From the NCBI GenBank assembly GCA_003962975.1, contig RXKC01000007.1, positions 26,711 to 90,710 on the forward strand: a DNA stretch of 64,000 bases. The letters are read 5' to 3'. Positions 5,452 to 20,622 of this stretch are shown in pieces. The DNA comes from Candidatus Saccharimonadota bacterium. GTDB taxonomy: Bacteria > Patescibacteriota > Saccharimonadia > Saccharimonadales > AWTP1-31. Numbering within the stretch: the first letter of the stretch is position 1; the number at the start of each line of letters is the position of its first letter. The notes beneath the pieces are model-generated. The model ran no database searches and was not told the origin of the DNA. It saw only the letters and a program-made list of their open reading frames with translations. Made by a program: the position numbers and the translations under genes.

Positions 5452-6498
5452 CTACTTTTCAGGTGCGTCTGGCTGATCTTCTTTTATTCGCAACGGCTTT
5501 TTACTAATGATCTGGTACTTCTTTCCAGTAAGCGGAGATTCCATATAGTCTTCGTTAAGTAAATTAACAAAAGTATTGAGGTCTTTGGGGCCCATGATGA
5601 TAATAGCGCCGTCGTTGTCGGTCATCAGATCAAGACCAAGCTCTTCAGATCGATCCATAAGATCAGCCTGCTTAACGTCGCCAACTTCCAGCTTTTGCAG
5701 CTTGTTGACCATACTCTTTTGTCCTTCAACCAGCTTCTCCATGCTGAGCTCTGTATCAAAATTAAAGGTAAAGTTAGCCTGTATCTCTTTCATTTTCTCG
5801 ACGGCCACGCCGTACTTTTTGGCATTGTAGGCAAACAGTTGCTCGAGCTTTGTCTGACTAAATGCATAGATATCCTCACCCAGAATCAGAATTTGATTGT
5901 CGGGCGGAATACGTACACCACCCTCTGCATCGAATGGTACAAACTTTCCGTTTTTTAGCATCCATGAAGATGCTCCCTTCATTACCATACTAGCGGGAAG
6001 CAACTTAATAATATAGAACGGTGCTGGTAGGTCGGCGTGTCGACAGCGTGCAAGCACACCTTTTATCCGCTTCAGATCATGCTCTTCCTCAACAAAGGTC
6101 TCGATTTCTGACTCTTGCTTTTTAATCCAGTTCAACAACTCGTAGGCCCGTTGTACTTTTCCAACTGTCGTCCGTTGTAGTACGTTTTCTTCGGCCTCTG
6201 CCTCTTCAAAGTCTCGCACTACTAGTCCTTGGGCAGCTCCATCGAGCACATACTCGAGCAAGCCATCAATAAGAAGTGGCTGGTAAGAGCGAGCTAATTC
6301 TGTACTCACTTTTGTACGATATAAAACATAATTTTTGTTGAATAGAAACAGGTCTATTTCAAGTTCTTCTTTAATAGGAACCAGATTGTTTGCCCAAAGA
6401 AAAACATCACTGCGTTCAGCTGGCGTACTGACCTCTTCTGCTGCTGCCTCATCGGCGTGTGGTGTCACCTTCTCTGTTTTTGTTGTGTCTTCATCCAT
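5452..6498 (-). CDS. Hypothetical protein (348 aa), acidic N-terminus
   Basis: Long ORF with consistent codon usage, 13 nt upstream of the NYN gene. No recognisable motif. Confidence 0.5.
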   Translation of the reverse strand: MDEDTTKTEKVTPHADEAAAEEVSTPAERSDVFLWANNLVPIKEELEIDLFLFNKNYVLYRTKVSTELARSYQPLLIDGLLEYVLDGAAQGLVVRDFEEAEAEENVLQRTTVGKVQRAYELLNWIKKQESEIETFVEEEHDLKRIKGVLARCRHADLPAPFYIIKLLPASMVMKGASSWMLKNGKFVPFDAEGGVRIPPDNQILILGEDIYAFSQTKLEQLFAYNAKKYGVAVEKMKEIQANFTFNFDTELSMEKLVEGQKSMVNKLQKLEVGDVKQADLMDRSEELGLDLMTDNDGAIIIMGPKDLNTFVNLLNEDYMESPLTGKKYQIISKKPLRIKEDQPDAPEK

Positions 6499-6549: not shown

Positions 6550-7221
6550 CTAGGCAAATTGAACTTCGTCCAAGGACGCTACTATCTCGGTATGTGTTTG
6601 CCAGTCACTGTGAAGTTTCTCAGCATGCTGTAACGTCTGGCTACCCCGATTCACAATCGCAGCTTTTGCACCCAGATTATACGCCAGTTGCACATCAACA
6701 AACTGGTCGCCGATAACTAAGGTATGTTCACCACCAGGTGCTTCGCCGTTAAATACAGCAACGAGTGGCTTGCGATGCGGACCGTCGTCACCACAAATAA
6801 TGCTATCGACAAGTTCTTTCAGGCTCGAGTTAGCAACGATGTTGCGAGGGCTGGCATTCAACCGGCCCTCGTGCATACGATTAGTGACAATTGTCTGCAT
6901 TATGCCAGCAGACTTAGCTCGTTTAGCGAGTTCGATCGCGTCTGTAAATATATGATGTTCGATTGCTTCATAGTAACCATTCTGTACATCCAAGAACTGT
7001 GCCATCACAGCTTCTAGCTGTTGGTCTGTTAAGCCACCGGCAGAGTTGCGTATTGAATCTTCAAGACTACCATGAAAATTCTCTGCTAATTTTTCGACAG
7101 TCGGCACAGCGTAGCCCTGCGCTTTTAGAACATGCTGTGTAACCTCACTAAAAACACTGAAGCTGTCAATCAGTGTTCCGTCCAGATCCCACACAATAGT
7201 TTTAATACCCTTGTATATCAC
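6550..7221 (-). CDS. HAD-superfamily hydrolase (beta-phosphoglucomutase-like subfamily)
   Basis: N-terminal VWDLDGTLIDS (DxDGT) motif I, with C-terminal GD motif. Confidence 0.75.
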   Translation of the reverse strand: MIYKGIKTIVWDLDGTLIDSFSVFSEVTQHVLKAQGYAVPTVEKLAENFHGSLEDSIRNSAGGLTDQQLEAVMAQFLDVQNGYYEAIEHHIFTDAIELAKRAKSAGIMQTIVTNRMHEGRLNASPRNIVANSSLKELVDSIICGDDGPHRKPLVAVFNGEAPGGEHTLVIGDQFVDVQLAYNLGAKAAIVNRGSQTLQHAEKLHSDWQTHTEIVASLDEVQFA

Positions 7222-7634
7222 AGCTGCTCGCCTGCTCTTGCTCGATTAGCCCACTCGTCTGCCATGATGTTACCTTTATCTGTCGCATGTGCCTTAACCC
7301 AGACAAGTTTGGCCTTTGAATTTCTATAGACAGCCAGCGCTTCTTGTACCAAATCAAGATTTTTTATGGCACCAGTCTTTTTCTTCCAACCATTTTTTTC
7401 CCAGCCGGGTGCCCATACGGTAATGACATTGATCCAGAATTCACTATCTGTGTAAATTGTGCAGTCTTCTTGGCCAGCATCAGTCATAGCGGCAATCAAT
7501 GCCTTGCCTTCCATGCGAATATTTGTCGAGTCGATATCTTTACCCAAAATGTGCGGCTTATTATCCTTTATGACTGCAAAGCCACCAGGCCCAGGATTTG
7601 GGCTACAACTGCCATCGGTATAGTATGTTGTCAT
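7218..7634 (-). CDS. rnhA: Ribonuclease HI
   Basis: YTDGSC start, TDSEF and C-terminal ADEWAN motifs of RNase H type 1. 4-nt overlap with the HAD gene. Confidence 0.8.
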   Translation of the reverse strand: MTTYYTDGSCSPNPGPGGFAVIKDNKPHILGKDIDSTNIRMEGKALIAAMTDAGQEDCTIYTDSEFWINVITVWAPGWEKNGWKKKTGAIKNLDLVQEALAVYRNSKAKLVWVKAHATDKGNIMADEWANRARAGEQL

Positions 7635-8536
7635 TATTTCTCTTTCTGCACGTCTGAGCGCATACGATTCTTATTTATATAGTAAATGCTACCAACCACA
7701 ATAAGTGCGCCAACAAATTTATTCCAACTATACACTTCGTTTAATAGTACAGCACCAACAATGGGCGTGAACACAGGATGAGTATTAGCAATCATAAGCG
7801 CGCGGACAGGGTTGATATAGTGTATCGCAGTAAAGAACGCGCGAATGGTTATCCAGAAAAAAAATCCTGCCAGCAGCGGCCATAGTCCAGCTTGGGTAAT
7901 AATAACTGATTTTCCAAATACGACTAATCCGATTAGCAAAAAGAAGAACCCACCCACTAACAACCTGATATCGGCAAGTGTAGGGGCTGGATAATGTTTC
8001 ATAAGTAGTTTTGAGTATACGTTTGTAAAACCGAGAATTAAGCTTGAACTTACAACAATTAGGTCGCCTTTATTGATCTCGATCGCCTTTAGTCCAACAA
8101 TGGCAATATAAAAACCAAGGAACATGATTACAAACCATCCAAGCTGAGCTCGAGTTAATTTATCTTTGAGCATTATTGACGAGAATATTGCCGTAGTGAT
8201 TATCGTGGTGGTGGCTAATATACTCGCATTAGCTGCTGTCGTGTATCCTTGACCAAACACGAATACAGCTAACCCCGTCCCTGCCAGAACTCCATTTACT
8301 ACTGCGCCCCTCAGCTTCACATCAAACGACACGCCCAGATTTTTTCTATGCGTCAATAACAGGCTCAATAAGGCGAAGAAAGCCCCCGCTGCCAAGAATG
8401 TTACCGTGTATTTAAATACTGGCACTTCATATGTTACATACACATAGCGGTTTATTAATGCATATATACCAAAAGCAAGTGCGCCCACACAGGCATACAG
8501 ATAGCCACTTGATACTTTTGACATGACCTTTAACAT
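7634..8536 (-). CDS. DMT-superfamily (EamA-like) transporter
   Basis: 300 aa, about 10 TM helices, duplicated EamA-like halves. Confidence 0.6.
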   Translation of the reverse strand: MLKVMSKVSSGYLYACVGALAFGIYALINRYVYVTYEVPVFKYTVTFLAAGAFFALLSLLLTHRKNLGVSFDVKLRGAVVNGVLAGTGLAVFVFGQGYTTAANASILATTTIITTAIFSSIMLKDKLTRAQLGWFVIMFLGFYIAIVGLKAIEINKGDLIVVSSSLILGFTNVYSKLLMKHYPAPTLADIRLLVGGFFFLLIGLVVFGKSVIITQAGLWPLLAGFFFWITIRAFFTAIHYINPVRALMIANTHPVFTPIVGAVLLNEVYSWNKFVGALIVVGSIYYINKNRMRSDVQKEK

Positions 8537-9774: not shown

Positions 9775-11118
9775 TTAAAGTTCGTCGATGGAAAGTCGGG
9801 TTTGTTGTGTCGTGTCGCGGTCGCGGATGGTCACGGTATTGTCTTCGAGCGTTTGAAAGTCGATAGTAACGCATTTGGGTGTTCCGATTTCGTCTTGGCG
9901 TCGATAACGTTTACCAATATTGCCGTTGTCGTCCCAAATAACTGACCCATATTTTTGCTTCATGGCTTTGAAAACTTCTTGGGCTTTTTCAACTAACTCT
10001 GGTTTGTTCTTAAGGAGCGGACTGACAGCCATTCGGACCGGGGCGAGATGTTCAGGAAGTTTAAGGTAGATACGTTGCTCGCCATTTTGTTCGTCAACCG
10101 AATAAGAACTATCGATCACTGCTAGGACCAGTCGGTCGAGACCAAACGTTGGTTCAATCACATGCGGGATGAAGGCCTCGCTACCGTCTTTGGGAATATA
10201 CTTTAGATTTTTACCCGAAGCATTGGCGTGTGATGACAAGTCATGGTCGGTACGGTAGGCACAACCACCGAGTTCCTTCTGTCCAATCGTAAAATCAAAC
10301 TCTGTATCGATCGAATGCTTGCTATAGTGCGCCCGGTCTTCAGCTGGTACTTCTATCTTGTGCAGCTTGTCGGCTGGTAGACCAAGACTTAGGTAAAAGT
10401 CTTGCTGCAACTGGAGCCACTTTTCAAACTCCTCTTTCCAATTATCTGGGTGGATAAAGAGTTCGATCTCCATTTGTTCGAGTTCACGTACACGAAAGAT
10501 AAAGTCACGCGGACTAATTTCGTTTCGAAACGCCTTACCAACTTGCGCCAAGGCAAAAGGCATATCAGGGCTAAAGCTATCGACAACGTTCTTGAAGTTA
10601 ACGAACATACCCTGCGCAGTTTCCGGACGGAGGTAGCTGGTAGAGTTCTCGTCCTCAGTAACGCCCACATTTGTCTTGAACATCATGTTAAACTGACGAA
10701 TTTTACTTAGTTGGTTGCCGTCGGGGCTTTTTATGCCCTGCTCTTCGATAACTTGATCCATCTGTGTGGTCGACATAGCCGCTACACCTTCGATACCAAG
10801 ATCTTCCAAAAGGTTGTCGGCACGATACCGTTTTTTGGTCTTTAGATCTTCAACAAGTGGATCATTAAAACCATCGACATGACCACTTGCCTGCCACACT
10901 TTTTGATTCATTAAGATTGCTGCATCAATACCGTAGACGTCATCACGGCTTTCGATAAAAAATTTCCACCATGCATCAACAATATTACGCTTTAGCTGCA
11001 CACCAAGCGGACCGTAGTCCCAGGTACCCGCCAGACCACCATAGATCTCACTACCCTGGTACATAAAACCACGGCGCTTACACAAGCTGACAATATCTTC
11101 TAGTTTGACGTCACTCAT
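9775..11118 (-). CDS. glyQS: Glycine--tRNA ligase (alpha2 dimeric type)
   Basis: N-terminal RRGFMYQGSEIYGGLAGTWDYGPLG, typical of GlyRS class II alpha2. Confidence 0.85.
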   Translation of the reverse strand: MSDVKLEDIVSLCKRRGFMYQGSEIYGGLAGTWDYGPLGVQLKRNIVDAWWKFFIESRDDVYGIDAAILMNQKVWQASGHVDGFNDPLVEDLKTKKRYRADNLLEDLGIEGVAAMSTTQMDQVIEEQGIKSPDGNQLSKIRQFNMMFKTNVGVTEDENSTSYLRPETAQGMFVNFKNVVDSFSPDMPFALAQVGKAFRNEISPRDFIFRVRELEQMEIELFIHPDNWKEEFEKWLQLQQDFYLSLGLPADKLHKIEVPAEDRAHYSKHSIDTEFDFTIGQKELGGCAYRTDHDLSSHANASGKNLKYIPKDGSEAFIPHVIEPTFGLDRLVLAVIDSSYSVDEQNGEQRIYLKLPEHLAPVRMAVSPLLKNKPELVEKAQEVFKAMKQKYGSVIWDDNGNIGKRYRRQDEIGTPKCVTIDFQTLEDNTVTIRDRDTTQQTRLSIDEL

Positions 11119-11159: not shown

Positions 11160-11882
11160 TTATGCGTGGTAGCCATGCAAGCGAAGCATCTGTCGACAGA
11201 GCGCGTTCACAGAAGTACCTACAGGCTGCGCTACTTGTACCAAAGAAAGTTTTTGAGGACTAGACGCCCGCAAAGCAAGCCTTAGTAATTTTATGTGCTG
11301 AGACTGGTATGCCCCTTGGTCTTTTTGTGCAAATGTCATGTGCTCGACATCAAACATATAGCACTTGCTCTCAGCCAAAGCTTGGCCCTGCGTATCATGC
11401 GCTAGATCTGGCGTATGACCACCGATACTGAGCAGATGAACCGCTAGCCAGACTTCAATATTTTGAATCGGCACCGCCTCATCGAGAGCCTGCAAACAAA
11501 GATTAAGAAGATCAAAATATTCTGGTTCTGCCGCATCCTCAGTTATCTTATGGAATGACTTCAAAACTTCGTAGGCATACATAGTGCGTTGGATGTCCGT
11601 AACTATATTGCCGTAGTTACGCTTCAGCCTTGAAGAAATAAGCGTACCGAGATCACCCTTTCCAGCGGTATACGTTAGGTCATTTACGCTGAATAGTTCA
11701 ATGCCTCCTGCCATTTTGCTTTTTATTTTTCGAACGCCTTTAGCCACAAGACGTACCTTGCCATGATCTCTTGTAAGAACTGTTAATATTCTATCTGCTT
11801 CGCCGTAATTTGTACGCGCCAACACAATGCCAACTACTACGACTTGTTTCATATCACCTTGCTGGCTGTAACCGCTTCGCAC
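11160..11882 (-). CDS. recO: DNA repair protein RecO (probable start at internal Met, 11852)
   Basis: N-terminal OB-fold GIVLARTNYGEADRILTVLTRDHGKVRLVAKGVRK matches RecO. ATGA overlap with the upstream receiver gene if started at MKQVVVV. Confidence 0.7.
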   Translation of the reverse strand: MRSGYSQQGDMKQVVVVGIVLARTNYGEADRILTVLTRDHGKVRLVAKGVRKIKSKMAGGIELFSVNDLTYTAGKGDLGTLISSRLKRNYGNIVTDIQRTMYAYEVLKSFHKITEDAAEPEYFDLLNLCLQALDEAVPIQNIEVWLAVHLLSIGGHTPDLAHDTQGQALAESKCYMFDVEHMTFAQKDQGAYQSQHIKLLRLALRASSPQKLSLVQVAQPVGTSVNALCRQMLRLHGYHA

Positions 11883-12226
11883 AATTGAGCCAGACTTGTG
11901 TCTGACTTATATAATACTTGCTCAATACCCAGGTCACGCCGTGCCCTGTCGTCAATTCGTGAGGACCTAATGTCGGTATGCAGCACAACCCTAACCGCAT
12001 TCCAGTCTGTATAGGATCGTATTTCGTAAAGCAGCTCAATGCCGTTATGCACTGCCATCTGGATCTCTAGGATAAGCACATCGATACTAAGTTGATCCAG
12101 TGCATTAACTGCAGAGGCAGCCGTTTTTCGCCAATGGACCGTATTGCCCGCCCGCTCCAGAGCCTGTTTGTATACTGATCCCAACGTAGTGTCTGGCTCT
12201 ACTAAAAGTATATTCGCCATACTCAC
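11849..12226 (-). CDS. Atypical single-domain response-regulator receiver with Glu at the phospho-acceptor position
   Basis: CheY-like fold with the T (LHT) and K (YKS) positions conserved, but DVLILEIQM carries E where the phosphorylated Asp normally sits. The acidic pocket is EPD. Confidence 0.6.
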   Translation of the reverse strand: MSMANILLVEPDTTLGSVYKQALERAGNTVHWRKTAASAVNALDQLSIDVLILEIQMAVHNGIELLYEIRSYTDWNAVRVVLHTDIRSSRIDDRARRDLGIEQVLYKSDTSLAQLCEAVTASKVI

Positions 12227-12957
12227 ACCAGCGCCATCTGCTGGCTTGATGTAAACGTCGCTGCCAAACCAGGAAGCTTTTGATAGCGTGCCGTCCTCAA
12301 GCCTGATGACATATTCTGCAGTATCGCATCTGCGATAAACAGACCCGTCTCACCCGATACTGTCATCTCGGCCACAGGACTATGTGCGCGCCCGTACAGC
12401 TTACGTGATCGGCGCAGCGTTGCAGAATGTAACCCTTGCACTTCGGCAAACAAGCCGGCGACAATGCCTGCCCGTGTTCGATGCGCGGCCAGAGTTATGA
12501 CCGGCCGCTTGGTGTGTACTTGTTGGGATTGAGCTGTGATAAAGAAGTGCCCTAGACTCAGCAAGGCAGCGCTCAAGCCTGCTCCGTGCGCCATAACTGG
12601 TTCATACTTACCAGCTACGATGACTTCCAGGTCACAGCGTCGCTGCTCTGCAGTTCGATTAAGCTGATGCGCTATATCATTCAGACTAGCCGCTAACGAA
12701 ACGGGTTCGAGCGCAAGGCGCTGCCCGGCCTGTGTAAGCTGCAAGCTGAGCAAGTAGTTATCAAGCATTGTTAGCGCTGAGCTTGATGCAGCTTGTACTC
12801 GAGCTAGATGTCCATCAACGTCATCTGAGCCACTGCTGGCTAGTTCGGCCGTTCGAGCGATAGTTAGAAAGGAGGATTTGAGGTTTTCTGCCAGCACGGT
12901 AAAGAGTTGACTGTGATCACCAAGTGTATAATCTTTTTGCTCAGTTTTTGACATCAC
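12223..12957 (-). CDS. Degenerate histidine-kinase-like protein (HisKA-like H-box, degenerate ATPase N/G boxes), no TM segment
   Basis: GHLARVQAASSSALTMLDNYL resembles an H-box. The downstream region aligns loosely to HATPase_c but lacks the N-box Asn and the DxGxG motif. 4-nt overlap with the receiver gene. Confidence 0.35.
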   Translation of the reverse strand: MMSKTEQKDYTLGDHSQLFTVLAENLKSSFLTIARTAELASSGSDDVDGHLARVQAASSSALTMLDNYLLSLQLTQAGQRLALEPVSLAASLNDIAHQLNRTAEQRRCDLEVIVAGKYEPVMAHGAGLSAALLSLGHFFITAQSQQVHTKRPVITLAAHRTRAGIVAGLFAEVQGLHSATLRRSRKLYGRAHSPVAEMTVSGETGLFIADAILQNMSSGLRTARYQKLPGLAATFTSSQQMALV

Positions 12958-13054
12958 TGCAACTATCTACCCTCGCCTACTTCTTGTAGAATTATACCAC
13001 TTGTGGAGTCAACACCCCACTGATGTAGCATAAATTACTGCGGAAGCCGTAAGA

Positions 13055-13720
13055 CTATGGCACGAATGTAAAGTTGGCGAGAATAATGTCGTTAAGATCA
13101 CCAATATATTGCGGTGATTCAGTCCAGACCTTTAGTACCTTGTCGCGAACTGGCAGTATAACCATTGCACCCTGTTTACCGGTGGCTACTTGCCCTTCTA
13201 CTCTGACACCCACTGTACCCGGAACCTTGGGAGCTGTGTAAGGAACAGTTTTAATTTTTCCTGATTTCACCTGTGACTCTAAGTTGCGCACCGTAGTGGT
13301 GTAAGAACTGTTTGAAACCTGAAACCTGAGGGCAAGATTGTGCTTTTGACTATCGGTAGCCGTGGGGACAAATGACGGATTAAGGAAACCGTTAACAGGT
13401 GTTGAGCCATTAGCTTCATCAACATAGGCAGACCAAGTTTTTGGATAGCTAATAGTCACACTACCGAAAGCAGCAGGTCCCGTATATGTTTTTAGAGGAT
13501 TCTTTTCTTTCTCGGCAAATTCTACAGCCTTTTTCTCACTGAGCGTTTGCTCGGCCGCAGCAACAGCTTCTGCTATTTTATCGTCCACATTATTTTTGTA
13601 ATCTTGGCGCCCAGCAAATGCCCACAGACCAAAGCCAGCTGTGCCCAAAAATGCTATGAGCGTAACGATAAAGGCGATTAACCAAGTGTCAGCAACGCCG
13701 CGCTGATCAAGCTTTCTCAT
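13055..13720 (-). CDS. Membrane-anchored hypothetical protein
   Basis: Single N-terminal TM helix followed by a coiled region and a Ser/Thr-rich extracellular domain. Confidence 0.4.
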   Translation of the reverse strand: MRKLDQRGVADTWLIAFIVTLIAFLGTAGFGLWAFAGRQDYKNNVDDKIAEAVAAAEQTLSEKKAVEFAEKEKNPLKTYTGPAAFGSVTISYPKTWSAYVDEANGSTPVNGFLNPSFVPTATDSQKHNLALRFQVSNSSYTTTVRNLESQVKSGKIKTVPYTAPKVPGTVGVRVEGQVATGKQGAMVILPVRDKVLKVWTESPQYIGDLNDIILANFTFVP

Positions 13721-13966: not shown

Positions 13967-15085
13967 TTATTTTACCTGAATATTCTCAACTGTAGCTATT
14001 ACTATACCGTCTTGTAAGGTGGCGGTCAGTTTGTGACCAGGCCGCAATTGTTTTATCGACTGCACCACCGCTTGATCTGTGCGCAAAATGGCGTAGCCTC
14101 TCTGCAGTGCCGCCTGTGGGCTTAACGCTGTTAGTAGGGCTGCTCTTTCACTAAGATGACGTGTAGTTTCGGATAGTCGCTGCCCGATAGCTTGCGTAAG
14201 ATTTGTTCGTATATGTCTCAGTTGTTGTAACTGATTACTGGCCTGTGTCACTAAGGCATGAGCGAGCGCTGCGTACTGTGCTTGTAAACGCTTTTTTTCT
14301 TGAGTTTGATCAGGCGTTAGCAACTCAGCGGCATTGCTGGGTGTGCTTGCCCTCTGGTCAGCCGCTAACTCAGCCAAGCTGGTATCAATCTCATGGCCAA
14401 TGGCAACAAGTGTGGGTATTCGACTTGCCGCTACCGCCCGCACAACTGACTCTGTGCTAAAAACTACTAAGTCATCAGCGCTGCCACCTCCTCTGGTAAT
14501 CACCAGAACTTCTGGAGGTTCAGCGAGTGAGTTGCAGGCCGAGATAGCCGAAACTATTTGCCCGGCAGCCACTTCGCCTTGCACCTGTACATCACAAAAT
14601 ATTATCTCTAACCCGCCCCAGCGAGCGCCCAAAACCTTTATAAAGTCAGCGTAGGCAGCCGACTCTTTTGAACCTATCAGGGCGATCCGCCTTGGCGGGT
14701 ATGGGAATGGGCGTTTGCGAGCTGGGTCGAATAAGCCTTCTTTTTCTAACTTAGCTTGCAACAACGCTGCTGCTTTTTTTAGTGAGCCTTCTCCAACGGG
14801 CTGGATTGTGCGTACATTAACCGAGAAACCAAAAGTTTGATGCAAACGCGGCACGCCACTGACCTGCACCAGCATGCCGTCTTCTAGTGGCCCGGGCAAT
14901 GCGTAGATGGTGCCAAAAAAGCGCACGCTAGAAAACTCATCTTTAAGGTCAAAGTATATCCACTTGCCTTTGCTCACCTTGAAGTTACTGAGTTCACCCT
15001 GAATAGTTACAGTAGGATACGCAAACTCGAGCGTCTGGTTAAAAACACCAACAAAATCACTGACACTAAATACTAACTCGTTCAT
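13967..15085 (-). CDS. xseA: Exodeoxyribonuclease VII large subunit
   Basis: N-terminal OB fold (VSDFVGVFNQTLEFAYPTVTIQGELSNFKVSKGKWIYFDLKD) and a C-terminal helical region. 4-nt overlap with the upstream gene. Confidence 0.85.
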   Translation of the reverse strand: MNELVFSVSDFVGVFNQTLEFAYPTVTIQGELSNFKVSKGKWIYFDLKDEFSSVRFFGTIYALPGPLEDGMLVQVSGVPRLHQTFGFSVNVRTIQPVGEGSLKKAAALLQAKLEKEGLFDPARKRPFPYPPRRIALIGSKESAAYADFIKVLGARWGGLEIIFCDVQVQGEVAAGQIVSAISACNSLAEPPEVLVITRGGGSADDLVVFSTESVVRAVAASRIPTLVAIGHEIDTSLAELAADQRASTPSNAAELLTPDQTQEKKRLQAQYAALAHALVTQASNQLQQLRHIRTNLTQAIGQRLSETTRHLSERAALLTALSPQAALQRGYAILRTDQAVVQSIKQLRPGHKLTATLQDGIVIATVENIQVK

Positions 15086-17672: not shown

Positions 17673-19214
17673 CTACCGTTCGTAAGTATATTTAATGCCC
17701 CGCTCTTGGGCTGCCTTCATCCACTGATTATTCCCAAATAACATTGCAAGCGCCGCAACACGGTGTTGGCCCTTTGCTACACCACCGTCCTGCTTTGCAT
17801 TAAGCTGTATAATCTCTCTGTTGCCTCGCACAACATCAAACTTACCAGTCAGTAAATCAGTCATGAGTTCTGCTACATAAAGATGGGAAGGAATGGTTGC
17901 AACCTGACGTCCGTTACGTAGTGCCTCGTTCCGTTGCTTGCCAACATTACCCCTAACCCTATCACCAAACCATTGGTACGGTGAGTTTGGGTCATCCTGC
18001 ATTCTTGATTCAATTGCAACGGCGTTCTCGATCTGGCGGGTCAGTTCCGCTAGACGCTCAGGACTAACACCACCCGCCAGTTCATCTGCCCAGGCTTTAA
18101 CCTGCTCATTGCGCACCGGCATCTCATTCTCGGCTGCTGTCTCAGTAGGTGCTTCATCCTGAACTGTAACGCCAAGTCGACTTAGCATATCAACCAGACT
18201 ACGATCAGAGTCAGCTAGTTTTTCACTTAAGGCAGGTAGCTGGGTTTCAAGTGCTTTCCTGACAAGACGCCCCTGCTCCATATCCAGTTGTGGATTAGTC
18301 TTCTTGTACACAATGGTCATGGCTTTTGTGCGTTGATTTAGGAGCCTCAGTTGATTTTGGTATTGGCCTAACTCTGAACGCAGTGATTTTGGTAACAGGT
18401 GCGTTTTACCACCTGTAAGTTCAGTCAGTTTCCGGAAGCCAGGCCCGTCAAGAAAACGATCAAAGGCTTCTTTGTCAGCATGCGCTACATAGGTCGTACC
18501 ACTACCACGATCAGTCTTTTTGAGACCTACTGCGACAGACTGGCGGACTGGATCAAATTCAGTAAGGTAATCTAACGCCGCCTTTATCTTCTCTCGTTCG
18601 TTTCTTAGGGAAGTAACAGCGGCCTCCACTGTGACCTCTGGCGATAGCCCCCATTGCTCACTTAGCTCAGCCATAGCTACCTGCTGTGAATACGTAAGCT
18701 CGCCTTGTTCCTGCTGATCGCTGCGTCCTTCTTCGGCTAGAGATGCGGGCTGCTCTTCGGGGTATTCCATGTCTACTGTCATGTCCTCATCGTCAAACGT
18801 GTCATCAGCTTGCGTGTCTGCAACTGGTTCCATCGCTTCTACTAGACCTGACTCTTCAACGGCTACTTCTCCAATAGCATGAGCAGTCTCCTGATCTGCC
18901 TGAGTTTCGGGTGTAGCTAAACCTTCGTACCATGCCTTAGGTGCTGTGTCCTCTATATCCGGAGTATTCCAGTCACGAAGGTCGCTCACACGAACCCACT
19001 TTTCCATAATCTGATCCCCGGCTTGCGCACTCACGCGTGCGACATCAAGGGGCTGCTGAGTATTAGGATCAATTGCTCGCCCTAACTCTGCGACTTGCCA
19101 TCCACCCTCCATATGACCAGCGCCTCTTTTTACATTTACCATATCAGGAAGACCCAACTGTTGTGCTGGGGAAACATATTGTTCAGCTGACGATGGGCTC
19201 TGCGCTGGAGGCAT
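17673..19214 (-). CDS. Hypothetical acidic protein with a C-terminal ParB/Srx-superfamily-like motif (KGQHRVAAL)
   Basis: The central region is a long D/E-rich low-complexity segment. The C-terminal GQHR motif resembles the DGQHR/ParB-like nuclease fold. The promoter-like region is shared with the next gene. Confidence 0.35.
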   Translation of the reverse strand: MPPAQSPSSAEQYVSPAQQLGLPDMVNVKRGAGHMEGGWQVAELGRAIDPNTQQPLDVARVSAQAGDQIMEKWVRVSDLRDWNTPDIEDTAPKAWYEGLATPETQADQETAHAIGEVAVEESGLVEAMEPVADTQADDTFDDEDMTVDMEYPEEQPASLAEEGRSDQQEQGELTYSQQVAMAELSEQWGLSPEVTVEAAVTSLRNEREKIKAALDYLTEFDPVRQSVAVGLKKTDRGSGTTYVAHADKEAFDRFLDGPGFRKLTELTGGKTHLLPKSLRSELGQYQNQLRLLNQRTKAMTIVYKKTNPQLDMEQGRLVRKALETQLPALSEKLADSDRSLVDMLSRLGVTVQDEAPTETAAENEMPVRNEQVKAWADELAGGVSPERLAELTRQIENAVAIESRMQDDPNSPYQWFGDRVRGNVGKQRNEALRNGRQVATIPSHLYVAELMTDLLTGKFDVVRGNREIIQLNAKQDGGVAKGQHRVAALAMLFGNNQWMKAAQERGIKYTYER

Positions 19215-20187: not shown

Positions 20188-20622
20188 CTAAACAGTTAGG
20201 TGATGCTTGATGCGCTCTACTACATCGGCAATCACGACTTGAGACTTAACCAAGTAATCGTCAGCACCGAGGCTTTGGGCACGCTCTTTGTCACTATCTT
20301 GGCTAAGTGCCGTTAACATTACTACTTTCACCTTAGCGGTTTCAGGAGTGTTGCGGAGGATATCCAAGACATCAAAGCCGCTTACTTTTGGCATCATCAC
20401 GTCCAGGACAATCAGGTCAGGACGGTACTCTAATGCACCTGCGAGAGCATCTTCCCCGTTAGGTACCCTTTTTACATCGAAGCCTTCAGCCTGTAATCTG
20501 GTTTGATAAACGCTGGCTAGCGCATCATCATCTTCGACGAGCAGAATCTTATGTTGCTTGGTTGCGGGTTTTGTTGGTTCATCCATAGTGCTAATGGTAG
20601 TATATTCTACCCACTTTGGCAA
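20188..20622 (-). CDS. Single-domain response regulator (CheY-like receiver); probable start at MDEP
   Basis: Canonical LLVEDDD, LIVLDVMMP (phospho-Asp), MLTA and YLVKS residues. Confidence 0.8.
   Translation of the reverse strand: MPKWVEYTTISTMDEPTKPATKQHKILLVEDDDALASVYQTRLQAEGFDVKRVPNGEDALAGALEYRPDLIVLDVMMPKVSGFDVLDILRNTPETAKVKVVMLTALSQDSDKERAQSLGADDYLVKSQVVIADVVERIKHHLTV

Follow-up and report, generated by a model that had tools for sequence, protein, structure and literature searches.

Two neighbouring genes located directly upstream of recO in a Candidatus Saccharimonadota bacterium encode a pseudo-histidine kinase (pHK) and a stand-alone pseudo-receiver, each carrying glutamate at the position where its canonical relatives are phosphorylated. 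They belong to a stretch of 64,000 nucleotides with a GC content of about 46% (contig RXKC01000007.1, assembly GCA_003962975.1; hereafter, the window). The first-pass annotation, made from the letters alone, had placed there three minus-strand genes, and the listing of open reading frames (ORFs) contains them as a tightly packed series, 12223-12957, 11849-12226 and 11160-11852, in order of transcription. The fold and the homology of the two proteins, the loss of every catalytic determinant, the near-fixation of the replacement residues in more than 130 genomes and the operon structure are established in the present study. It seems, with slightly better than even confidence, that the two proteins constitute a phosphorylation-independent pseudo-kinase/pseudo-receiver module, which would have descended from a canonical HisKA pair and been kept by strong purifying selection. 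The earlier description of a degenerate kinase-like protein next to an Asp-to-Glu receiver is borne out, and more firmly than stated, as the acceptor His and the phosphatase motif are gone as well; the losses in the kinase-like protein and the Glu of the receiver are both fixed in a large family of Saccharibacteria proteins.

A kinase-like protein and a receiver devoid of phosphorylation residues

The 244-aa kinase-like protein has no Pfam match at E ≤ 1 and, as a single query, did not match any PDB sequence. It has at least 172 close homologues of uniform length, which come from Saccharibacteria wherever the source is named, and below E = 1e-30 the search of all 50%-identity cluster representatives yielded 265 members of the family, with lengths of about 230-250 aa throughout. 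The profile of 44 homologues matched the DHp domain of CpxA at E = 1e-6, as well as other kinases and DivL, with Glu24 placed on the acceptor His, and the comparison with EnvZ and HK853 by hhalign aligned 200 columns. The AlphaFold2 (AF2) model built on the 44-sequence alignment (pLDDT 89.1, pTM 0.85) shows a DHp hairpin (residues 11-80) made of two helices, 11-41 and 47-80, and behind it a CA-like alpha/beta domain (84-235), which is the fold of HisKA kinases with a GHKL-type CA domain. The Foldseek search with this model returned full-length matches to HK853, DivL, RetS, CusS and WalK (about 230 columns, probability 1.00, E of about 1e-8), the best being HK853 (E = 6e-9, TM-score 0.65). The possibility that the ORF belongs to an unrelated family had been raised in the first-pass annotation and was checked; the protein matches histidine kinases by both profile and fold. 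The absence of a transmembrane segment, also claimed earlier, is supported by the maximum 19-residue hydropathy of 1.33, as against 2.32 in the neighbouring membrane-anchored protein. The protein is therefore a genuine histidine-kinase core (DHp plus CA), soluble and without a sensor domain.

The H-box of pHK was identified as LAENLKSSF (LAEQLKxPL in the family), which aligns with SHELRTPL in both the hidden Markov model (HMM) alignment and hhalign and brings Glu24 onto the acceptor His. In close homologues, column 24 is occupied by Glu in 178 of 186 sequences (about 95%) and by His in none, while the best 149 cluster representatives at 50% identity have Glu in 117 cases, Gln in 11, Asp in 10 and His in four. 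The motif GHLARVQAA, originally proposed as the H-box, was rejected: its His (H50) is unconserved, being replaced by A, D, Q and other residues, and lies at the start of DHp helix 2. The position next to the acceptor (H+1) is mostly Gln in close homologues, and the catalytic Glu/Asp is missing from it. Since the H+4 position is mostly Leu or Val, and Ser in the window protein, but not Thr or Asn, the HisKA phosphatase motif is lost too. Alignments and column counts bear out the reported lack of the N-box Asn, which is absent from either candidate position (S134; V138 or T/E141), and of the G1 motif DxGxG, where Asp and the first Gly are missing (FAEVQGL). The G2 box is kept only in part, as G-x-G-x-F. 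Across the family, Pfam at E ≤ 0.01 recognised HATPase_c (PF02518) in none of 124 sequences and HisKA (PF00512) in six of 124. With no acceptor His, no ATP-binding motifs and no Pfam match, the protein does not conform to the definition of a HisKA sensor kinase; it corresponds to a histidine pseudokinase, that is, a conserved protein with the histidine kinase fold, degenerate motifs and no acceptor His.

The alignment of 44 sequences contains 15 invariant and 37 near-invariant columns. The invariant motifs include GIVAG and GLAATF, as well as GKYEPVMAH, LAAHR, LYGxARQPL and GAGVFVAD; the latter four, motifs of the CA-like domain and the lid, suggest by their conservation that a binding function has been retained.

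The product of the second gene matches Response_reg (PF00072) with an E-value of 1.7e-11 and a score of 44.7 bits, the gathering cut-off being 30.2, and all 67 family receivers scanned matched this domain. Thus the profile searches envisaged in the first-pass annotation succeeded for the receiver but gave neither HisKA nor HATPase_c for the kinase-like protein of the window, the homology of which was revealed by the family profile. In alignments with solved receivers, Glu52 coincides with the phospho-Asp of CpxR, CheY, Spo0F and PhoB, Glu8-Pro9 with the acidic pair, and Thr82 and Lys105 with the conserved Thr and Lys. All these assignments, already made at the first reading, are upheld by 133 non-redundant homologues from genome and metagenome loci: Glu52 is present in 133 of them, E8 in 132, P9 in 131, T or S at position 82 in 132 and K105 in 132, a degree of conservation that chance by far does not explain. 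The protein is therefore recognised as a receiver and keeps T/S and K, while the phospho-acceptor Asp and the Mg2+-binding DD are missing. According to the published definitions, a REC domain without the D residue is an aspartate-less receiver, and a pseudo-receiver is one without any of five active-site residues (PMC12632262, PMC4395418); the protein falls within the aspartate-less/pseudo-receiver class. Glu is the commonest replacement in aspartate-less receivers, accounting for 26% (PMC4395418). The phosphomimetic role ascribed to Glu52 earlier is hypothetical, because the Asp-to-Glu replacement activates certain receivers and not others (PMC4395418, PMC12632262). Judging by the alignments, the pair lacks every residue needed for making, transferring or removing a phosphoryl group.

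Gene order, junctions and co-evolution

Examination of 80 genome and 80 metagenome loci demonstrated that the pHK gene is followed by the receiver gene and then by recO in every sufficiently long contig, and in over 150 loci the ORFs have no interruptions and share a uniform length. Four loci reached via RecO, and hence free of kinase-motif bias, carry the Glu/Glu pair in the same order. The third gene of the trio is a confident recO: its product contains RecO_N (PF11967, 3.9e-21) and RecO_C (PF02565, 2.6e-6) and scores 92 bits against the TIGR00613 equivalog model with a cut-off of 48.7. The upstream genes, all on the minus strand, are hyp221, encoding a membrane-anchored hypothetical protein, xseB, xseA and mem343, encoding a flippase-like membrane protein. 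The hyp221 gene is syntenic in 74 of 79 loci. In one Saccharibacteria metagenome-assembled genome (locus L161), the trio is followed, a few genes further downstream, by a gene of the KwaB family (6771-7735; PF16162, Kiwa anti-phage defence).

The stop codon of the receiver gene and the start codon of recO overlap by 4 nt in 62 of 71 genomes and by 1 nt in three more. A 4-nt overlap is found in 19 of 73 cases at the mem343/xseA junction and in 11 of 102 cases at the xseA/xseB junction, the latter joining genes for two subunits of one enzyme, exonuclease VII. In the window, mem343 and xseA share 4 nt as well (15082-15085), but across loci L001-L080 their junction ranges from -35 to more than 150 nt, unlike that of the receiver and recO genes. 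Between hyp221 and pHK there is always a gap, never shorter than 11 nt and mostly of 51-150 nt (128 loci), and the distance between recO and glyS is variable. A candidate extended -10 element, TGgTATAAT, was noticed in this upstream gap in the window; a consensus promoter scan requiring both hexamers and a terminator scan reported nothing there. Since the hyp221/pHK side is always gapped and contains this element, and the receiver/recO overlap is fixed, pHK, receiver and recO are, as far as sequence reading allows, a discrete transcription unit with an unusually fixed receiver/recO coupling.

The first-pass annotation had all three genes overlapping by ATGA, which is true for the receiver/recO junction only. 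The pHK/receiver junction reads GCG CTG GTG TGA GT ATG GCG, which can be read with the GTG as the start, giving a GTGA overlap, or with an ATG located two bases past the stop. The family N-termini favour the ATG, since they read MANILL, MARILL and similar; thus the ORF assigned to a receiver of 125 aa stands, but the protein is better read as 123 aa. In other loci the two genes are at most about 24 nt apart, with the exception of one Saccharibacteria genome (L028), where a 581-nt insert (5691-6271) without a convincing ORF or an Rfam match separates them.

Co-evolution was assessed by a mirror-tree approach with partial Mantel tests in 50 genomes, with the averaged divergence of six proteins encoded nearby as the control variable. 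The partial correlation for pHK and the receiver was 0.40 (P = 0.001), as compared with 0.31 for the positive control, XseA-XseB, and 0.29 was obtained for hyp221 and pHK. Rate covariation thus gives modest support to the pair being a functional unit. The coordinates of the main features are listed in Table 1.

Table 1. Position of the pair, recO, their diagnostic codons and adjoining features in the window
Feature	Position	Strand	Details
Pseudo-histidine kinase (pHK)	12223..12957	-	244 aa with GTG start; 243 aa with ATG at 12954
Stand-alone pseudo-receiver, without output domain	11849..12220	-	123 aa with ATG start at 12220; ORF 11849-12226
recO	11160..11852	-	230 aa, ATG start
Codon GAA, Glu24 of pHK, acceptor-His position	12886..12888	-	HMM alignment to CpxA; hhalign to EnvZ/HK853
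Codon GAG, Glu52 of receiver, phospho-acceptor Asp position	12065..12067	-	aligned with CpxR D51, CheY D57
Codons of Glu8-Pro9 of receiver, DD pair position	12194..12199	-	aligned with CheY D12/D13
Codon of Thr82 of receiver, T/S position	11975..11977	-	aligned with CheY T87
Codon of Lys105 of receiver, K position	11906..11908	-	aligned with CheY K109
ATGA, receiver stop overlapping recO start (putative translational coupling)	11849..11852	-	sequence GTG ATA TGA / ATG AAA
Candidate extended -10 (TGgTATAAT), putative operon start	12991..12999	-	own sequence reading, 97-nt gap upstream of pHK gene
hyp221, membrane-anchored, directly upstream of pHK	13055..13720	-	221 aa, transmembrane helix at residues 14-32; no Pfam match
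Class II glycyl-tRNA synthetase (glyS), downstream of recO	9775-11118	-	

The profile search with hyp221 against the PDB gave only noise, and the AF2 model predicted from its sequence alone was too poor to use (pLDDT 39.7). Further upstream, between rpmA (L27, 17399-17671) and another hypothetical gene, a minus-strand ORF of 513 aa (17673-19214) encodes a protein which belongs to no obvious family and whose long N-terminal half is acidic and of low complexity. Neither tRNA genes nor Rfam families at the gathering threshold were detected in the window. The GC skew is negative throughout positions 1-64000, and the cumulative skew declines steadily.

Possible mechanism and alternative explanations

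If the pair does form a phosphorylation-independent module, the kinase-like protein would still dimerise via its DHp hairpin, and the receiver would dock through the surface formed by DHp helix 1 and receiver helix 1, both sides of which are highly conserved. Glu52, held by Thr82 and Lys105, would fix the receiver in one conformation, probably an "on-like" one. The output would then come by protein contacts alone, from the Glu52-locked receiver docked on the dimeric kinase-like protein, and the module would signal or act as a scaffold in the manner of DivL, PsmA and aspartate-less receivers. RecO, presumably co-translated with the receiver, would be the most obvious candidate for the target. 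This is the weakest step of the scheme, and a functional link of the pair to RecO is considered plausible on the basis of gene arrangement.

Data on the importance of these genes are available for the cultivated Southlakia epibionticum, in which the genes stand in the same order and both junctions within the trio are overlaps of 4 nt (PMC10633639 Table S1, Wang et al. 2023). The order there is the flippase-like gene, xseA, xseB, a methyltransferase gene, SEML1_0245-0248 and the GlyRS gene. In transposon sequencing (Tn-seq), the hypothetical SEML1_0245, Mog1p/PsbP-like and located at the hyp221 position, was scored ES/ES/ES, i.e. essential; SEML1_0246, at the position of the kinase-like gene, GD/GD/ES; the response regulator SEML1_0247 (366 bp) NE/GD/ES; and SEML1_0248, encoding RecO, NE/NE/GD with 25-36 insertion sites retained, while xseA and xseB tolerate insertions (PMC10633639). 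The depletion seen upstream cannot result from polar effects on recO, a gene that is itself tolerant of insertions. The genes at the pair's position in Southlakia weigh more for fitness than recO.

Several observations count against a phosphorylation-independent module, or against RecO as its partner. The whole mem343-xseA-xseB-hyp221-pHK-receiver-recO-glyS block is syntenic, and the recO gene of E. coli likewise rides along in an operon of mixed content; for these reasons, adjacency alone proves little, and the proximity of the pair to recO may be a matter of history. In the 50 genomes, neither the receiver (-0.11) nor pHK (-0.03) showed rate covariation with RecO, so the mirror-tree analysis gives no support for a RecO partnership; the method is noisy, since presumably unrelated pairs also scored high (mem343-RecO 0.43, hyp221-RecO 0.38). 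Consequently, of the initial statement that the pair is "hard-wired" to RecO, the position and the conserved ATGA stand, whereas the lack of covariation and the synteny of the whole block speak against it. The average-product-corrected mutual information for 133 kinase/receiver pairs was uninformative, since its top pairs mostly involve one clade-specific receiver column (Y65) and lie off the canonical interface. Four of the 149 distant representatives keep the H-box His (P0209, P0267, P0269 and P0276; e.g. AHELRMPL). Their CA domain is degenerate and has no Pfam match, so the ATP-binding domain seems to have died before His or independently of it; the sequences suggest that ATP binding was lost in this way. 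A nucleotide or another ligand could still be bound, given how strongly the lid and glycine motifs are conserved. Finally, SEML1_0246 of Southlakia matches HATPase_c at 1.1e-9 and HisKA at 5.3e-8, and SEML1_0247 matches PF00072 at 6e-22 (PMC10633639); no match as strong was obtained with the 134 kinase-like and 67 receiver sequences scanned here. The Southlakia pair may thus be less degenerate and perhaps includes a functional kinase, and, because it looks more canonical, its Tn-seq phenotype may not transfer to the Glu/Glu pair. In the search for the counterparts in Southlakia and TM7x, the best 120 RecO hits all proved to be close relatives, and the clusters bore no names other than "hypothetical protein".

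It is possible, although we lean against it, that a phosphorylation-independent pair performs an essential job unrelated to RecO, e.g. in the envelope, division or host attachment and possibly with the upstream membrane-anchored protein, recO merely riding along at the distal end of a compact operon. This would agree with the Southlakia data, where the genes at the pair's position and the upstream hypothetical gene are critical or essential and recO, xseA and xseB are not (PMC10633639), with the absence of covariation of either protein with RecO next to the value obtained for hyp221-pHK, with the synteny of the entire neighbourhood, and with the operon rnc-era-recO-pdxJ-acpS of E. coli, in which recO stands among unrelated genes. 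A passenger role is harder to reconcile with the ATGA junction, which is kept in the large majority of genomes despite the variable length and sequence of the receiver C-terminus and is steadier than the junction of the exonuclease VII subunits; besides, the gap always lies between hyp221 and the pair, and the Southlakia genes are maybe not equivalent to the Glu/Glu pair. In another reading, for which the conserved ATGA coupling speaks, the receiver, either by itself or together with the kinase-like dimer, would bind RecO stoichiometrically as a negative regulator or chaperone and restrain or target its strand annealing and RecA loading. Stoichiometric binding would account for the co-translation, and restraint for the loss of the pair being worse than the loss of RecO. 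The Tn-seq pattern, with depletion upstream and tolerance in recO, fits an inhibitor placed upstream of a potentially harmful activity, and xseA/xseB and recO all act on single-stranded DNA. Nevertheless, we regard such a restrainer as unlikely: its rate does not covary with that of RecO, the literature searches found no precedent, and the argument depends on the presumed equivalence of the Southlakia genes.

Cryptic phosphotransfer, with the kinase-like protein docking a canonical orphan receiver or a distant sensor kinase as a connector, or using another residue such as His159, appears still less probable. A stand-alone receiver with intact DD, D, T and K is indeed encoded 8 kb away on the minus strand (20188-20622, probable start 20586; LLVEDDD ... 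LIVLDVMMP ... MLTAL ... YLVKS); it adjoins pyrG and is the positional counterpart of the non-essential SEML1_0238. At least one PAS sensor kinase is encoded in Southlakia, His159 in LAAHR is found in 180 of 186 close homologues, and the four distant members mentioned above have retained the H-box His. On the other hand, His159 falls to 87 of 149 distant representatives, with Y, R or K in the others, there is neither an N-box Asn nor a G1 box for the use of ATP, the phosphatase motif is absent and Glu52 of the receiver is invariant. The search for a canonical kinase in the 64-kb window found none. As for the idea that a lost two-component system has left the two genes behind as decaying relics, pseudogenes in the making, the missing catalytic residues and the failure of Pfam to detect the kinase-like protein would be expected in that case. 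However, intact ORFs of uniform length in so many loci, invariant columns, a confident AF2 model and the fixation of the substituted residues themselves (E24, E52, E8, P9), which is unlike a decay product, make it extremely improbable, and conservation effectively refutes it.

Comparison with known systems and significance

The closest parallel to pHK is provided by PsmA of Streptomyces venezuelae, which likewise has a DHp and CA core, Glu in place of the H-box His and degenerate ATP motifs, and has lost the D/ExxT/N phosphatase motif (PMC12963549). PsmA has no autokinase activity and works independently of phosphorelay (PMC12963549). It is, however, a large DivIVA-binding hybrid in which PAS domains and a disordered region are joined to a REC domain of its own with intact Asp (PMC12963549), and different species have different residues at its His position, in contrast to the Glu of pHK, which is nearly fixed among close homologues. 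pHK is a minimal 244-aa core without any other domain, and its separate partner receiver itself lacks the Asp. DivL of Caulobacter (PDB 4Q20; PMC4211667), which is among the top structural matches, is another kinase fold repurposed for binding a single-domain receiver, DivK, and not for phosphorylating it. Unlike pHK, DivL has a Tyr in the His position, is anchored in the membrane and contains PAS sensor domains; moreover, DivK is phosphorylatable and DivL reads its phosphorylation state, whereas the receiver described here has no canonical phospho-site.

Aspartate-less receivers of the Glu type, such as ChxR, plant PRRs and fungal Rim15 (PMC4395418, PMC12632262), share with the Saccharibacteria receiver the PF00072 fold, the Asp-to-Glu replacement, the retained first acidic residue and Lys, and the loss of the second acidic residue. 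Most of those characterised have an output domain and no cognate kinase-like partner; the present one stands alone beside a matching dead kinase, and its signature E-P...E...T/S...K-P is invariant. The two-gene architecture with a small stand-alone receiver resembles HK853-RR468 of Thermotoga (PDB 3DGE, 5UHT), but HK853 possesses a membrane sensor, His260, kinase/phosphatase activity and the N, G1 and G2 boxes, and RR468 has Asp53, all of which appear to be missing from the window pair. The E. coli rnc-era-recO region is similar to the window in that recO is distal in the operon and closely follows a gene of another functional class. It differs in having the GTPase gene era upstream, an 11-nt gap before recO and no gene resembling those of two-component systems.

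The literature searches, limited to open-access papers, found no description of a dead pair combined with recO coupling, and the pair genes are not mentioned in the TM7x transcriptome papers, the Patescibacteria review or the main text of the Cell paper. Two minimal dead partners that share one fixed Glu substitution, are conserved throughout the class, a lineage with reduced genomes, and are rigidly coupled to recO appear to make up a new combination. It is tempting, though improbable in our estimation, to go further and suppose that in most Saccharibacteria an ancestral sensor-less two-component pair has turned into a phosphate-free, permanently engaged Glu/Glu complex, which would outweigh RecO for growth and physically gate RecO-dependent processing of single-stranded DNA, either in repair or after import by competence, in these nucleotide-scavenging episymbionts.

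Pseudo-kinases and aspartate-less receivers are common, and their mechanisms are mostly obscure, a review of 2025 calling the matter "a mystery" (PMC12632262). The pair described here is an unusually clean case, with both cognate partners minimal and single-function and with both phospho-sites converted to the same residue, fixed across hundreds of species. It occurs in a lineage for which genetics is available and is therefore tractable for studying the role left to a two-component pair after the loss of phosphorylation. Moreover, a hitherto overlooked regulator critical for fitness in the reduced patescibacterial genomes may come to light here, perhaps one linked to recombination.

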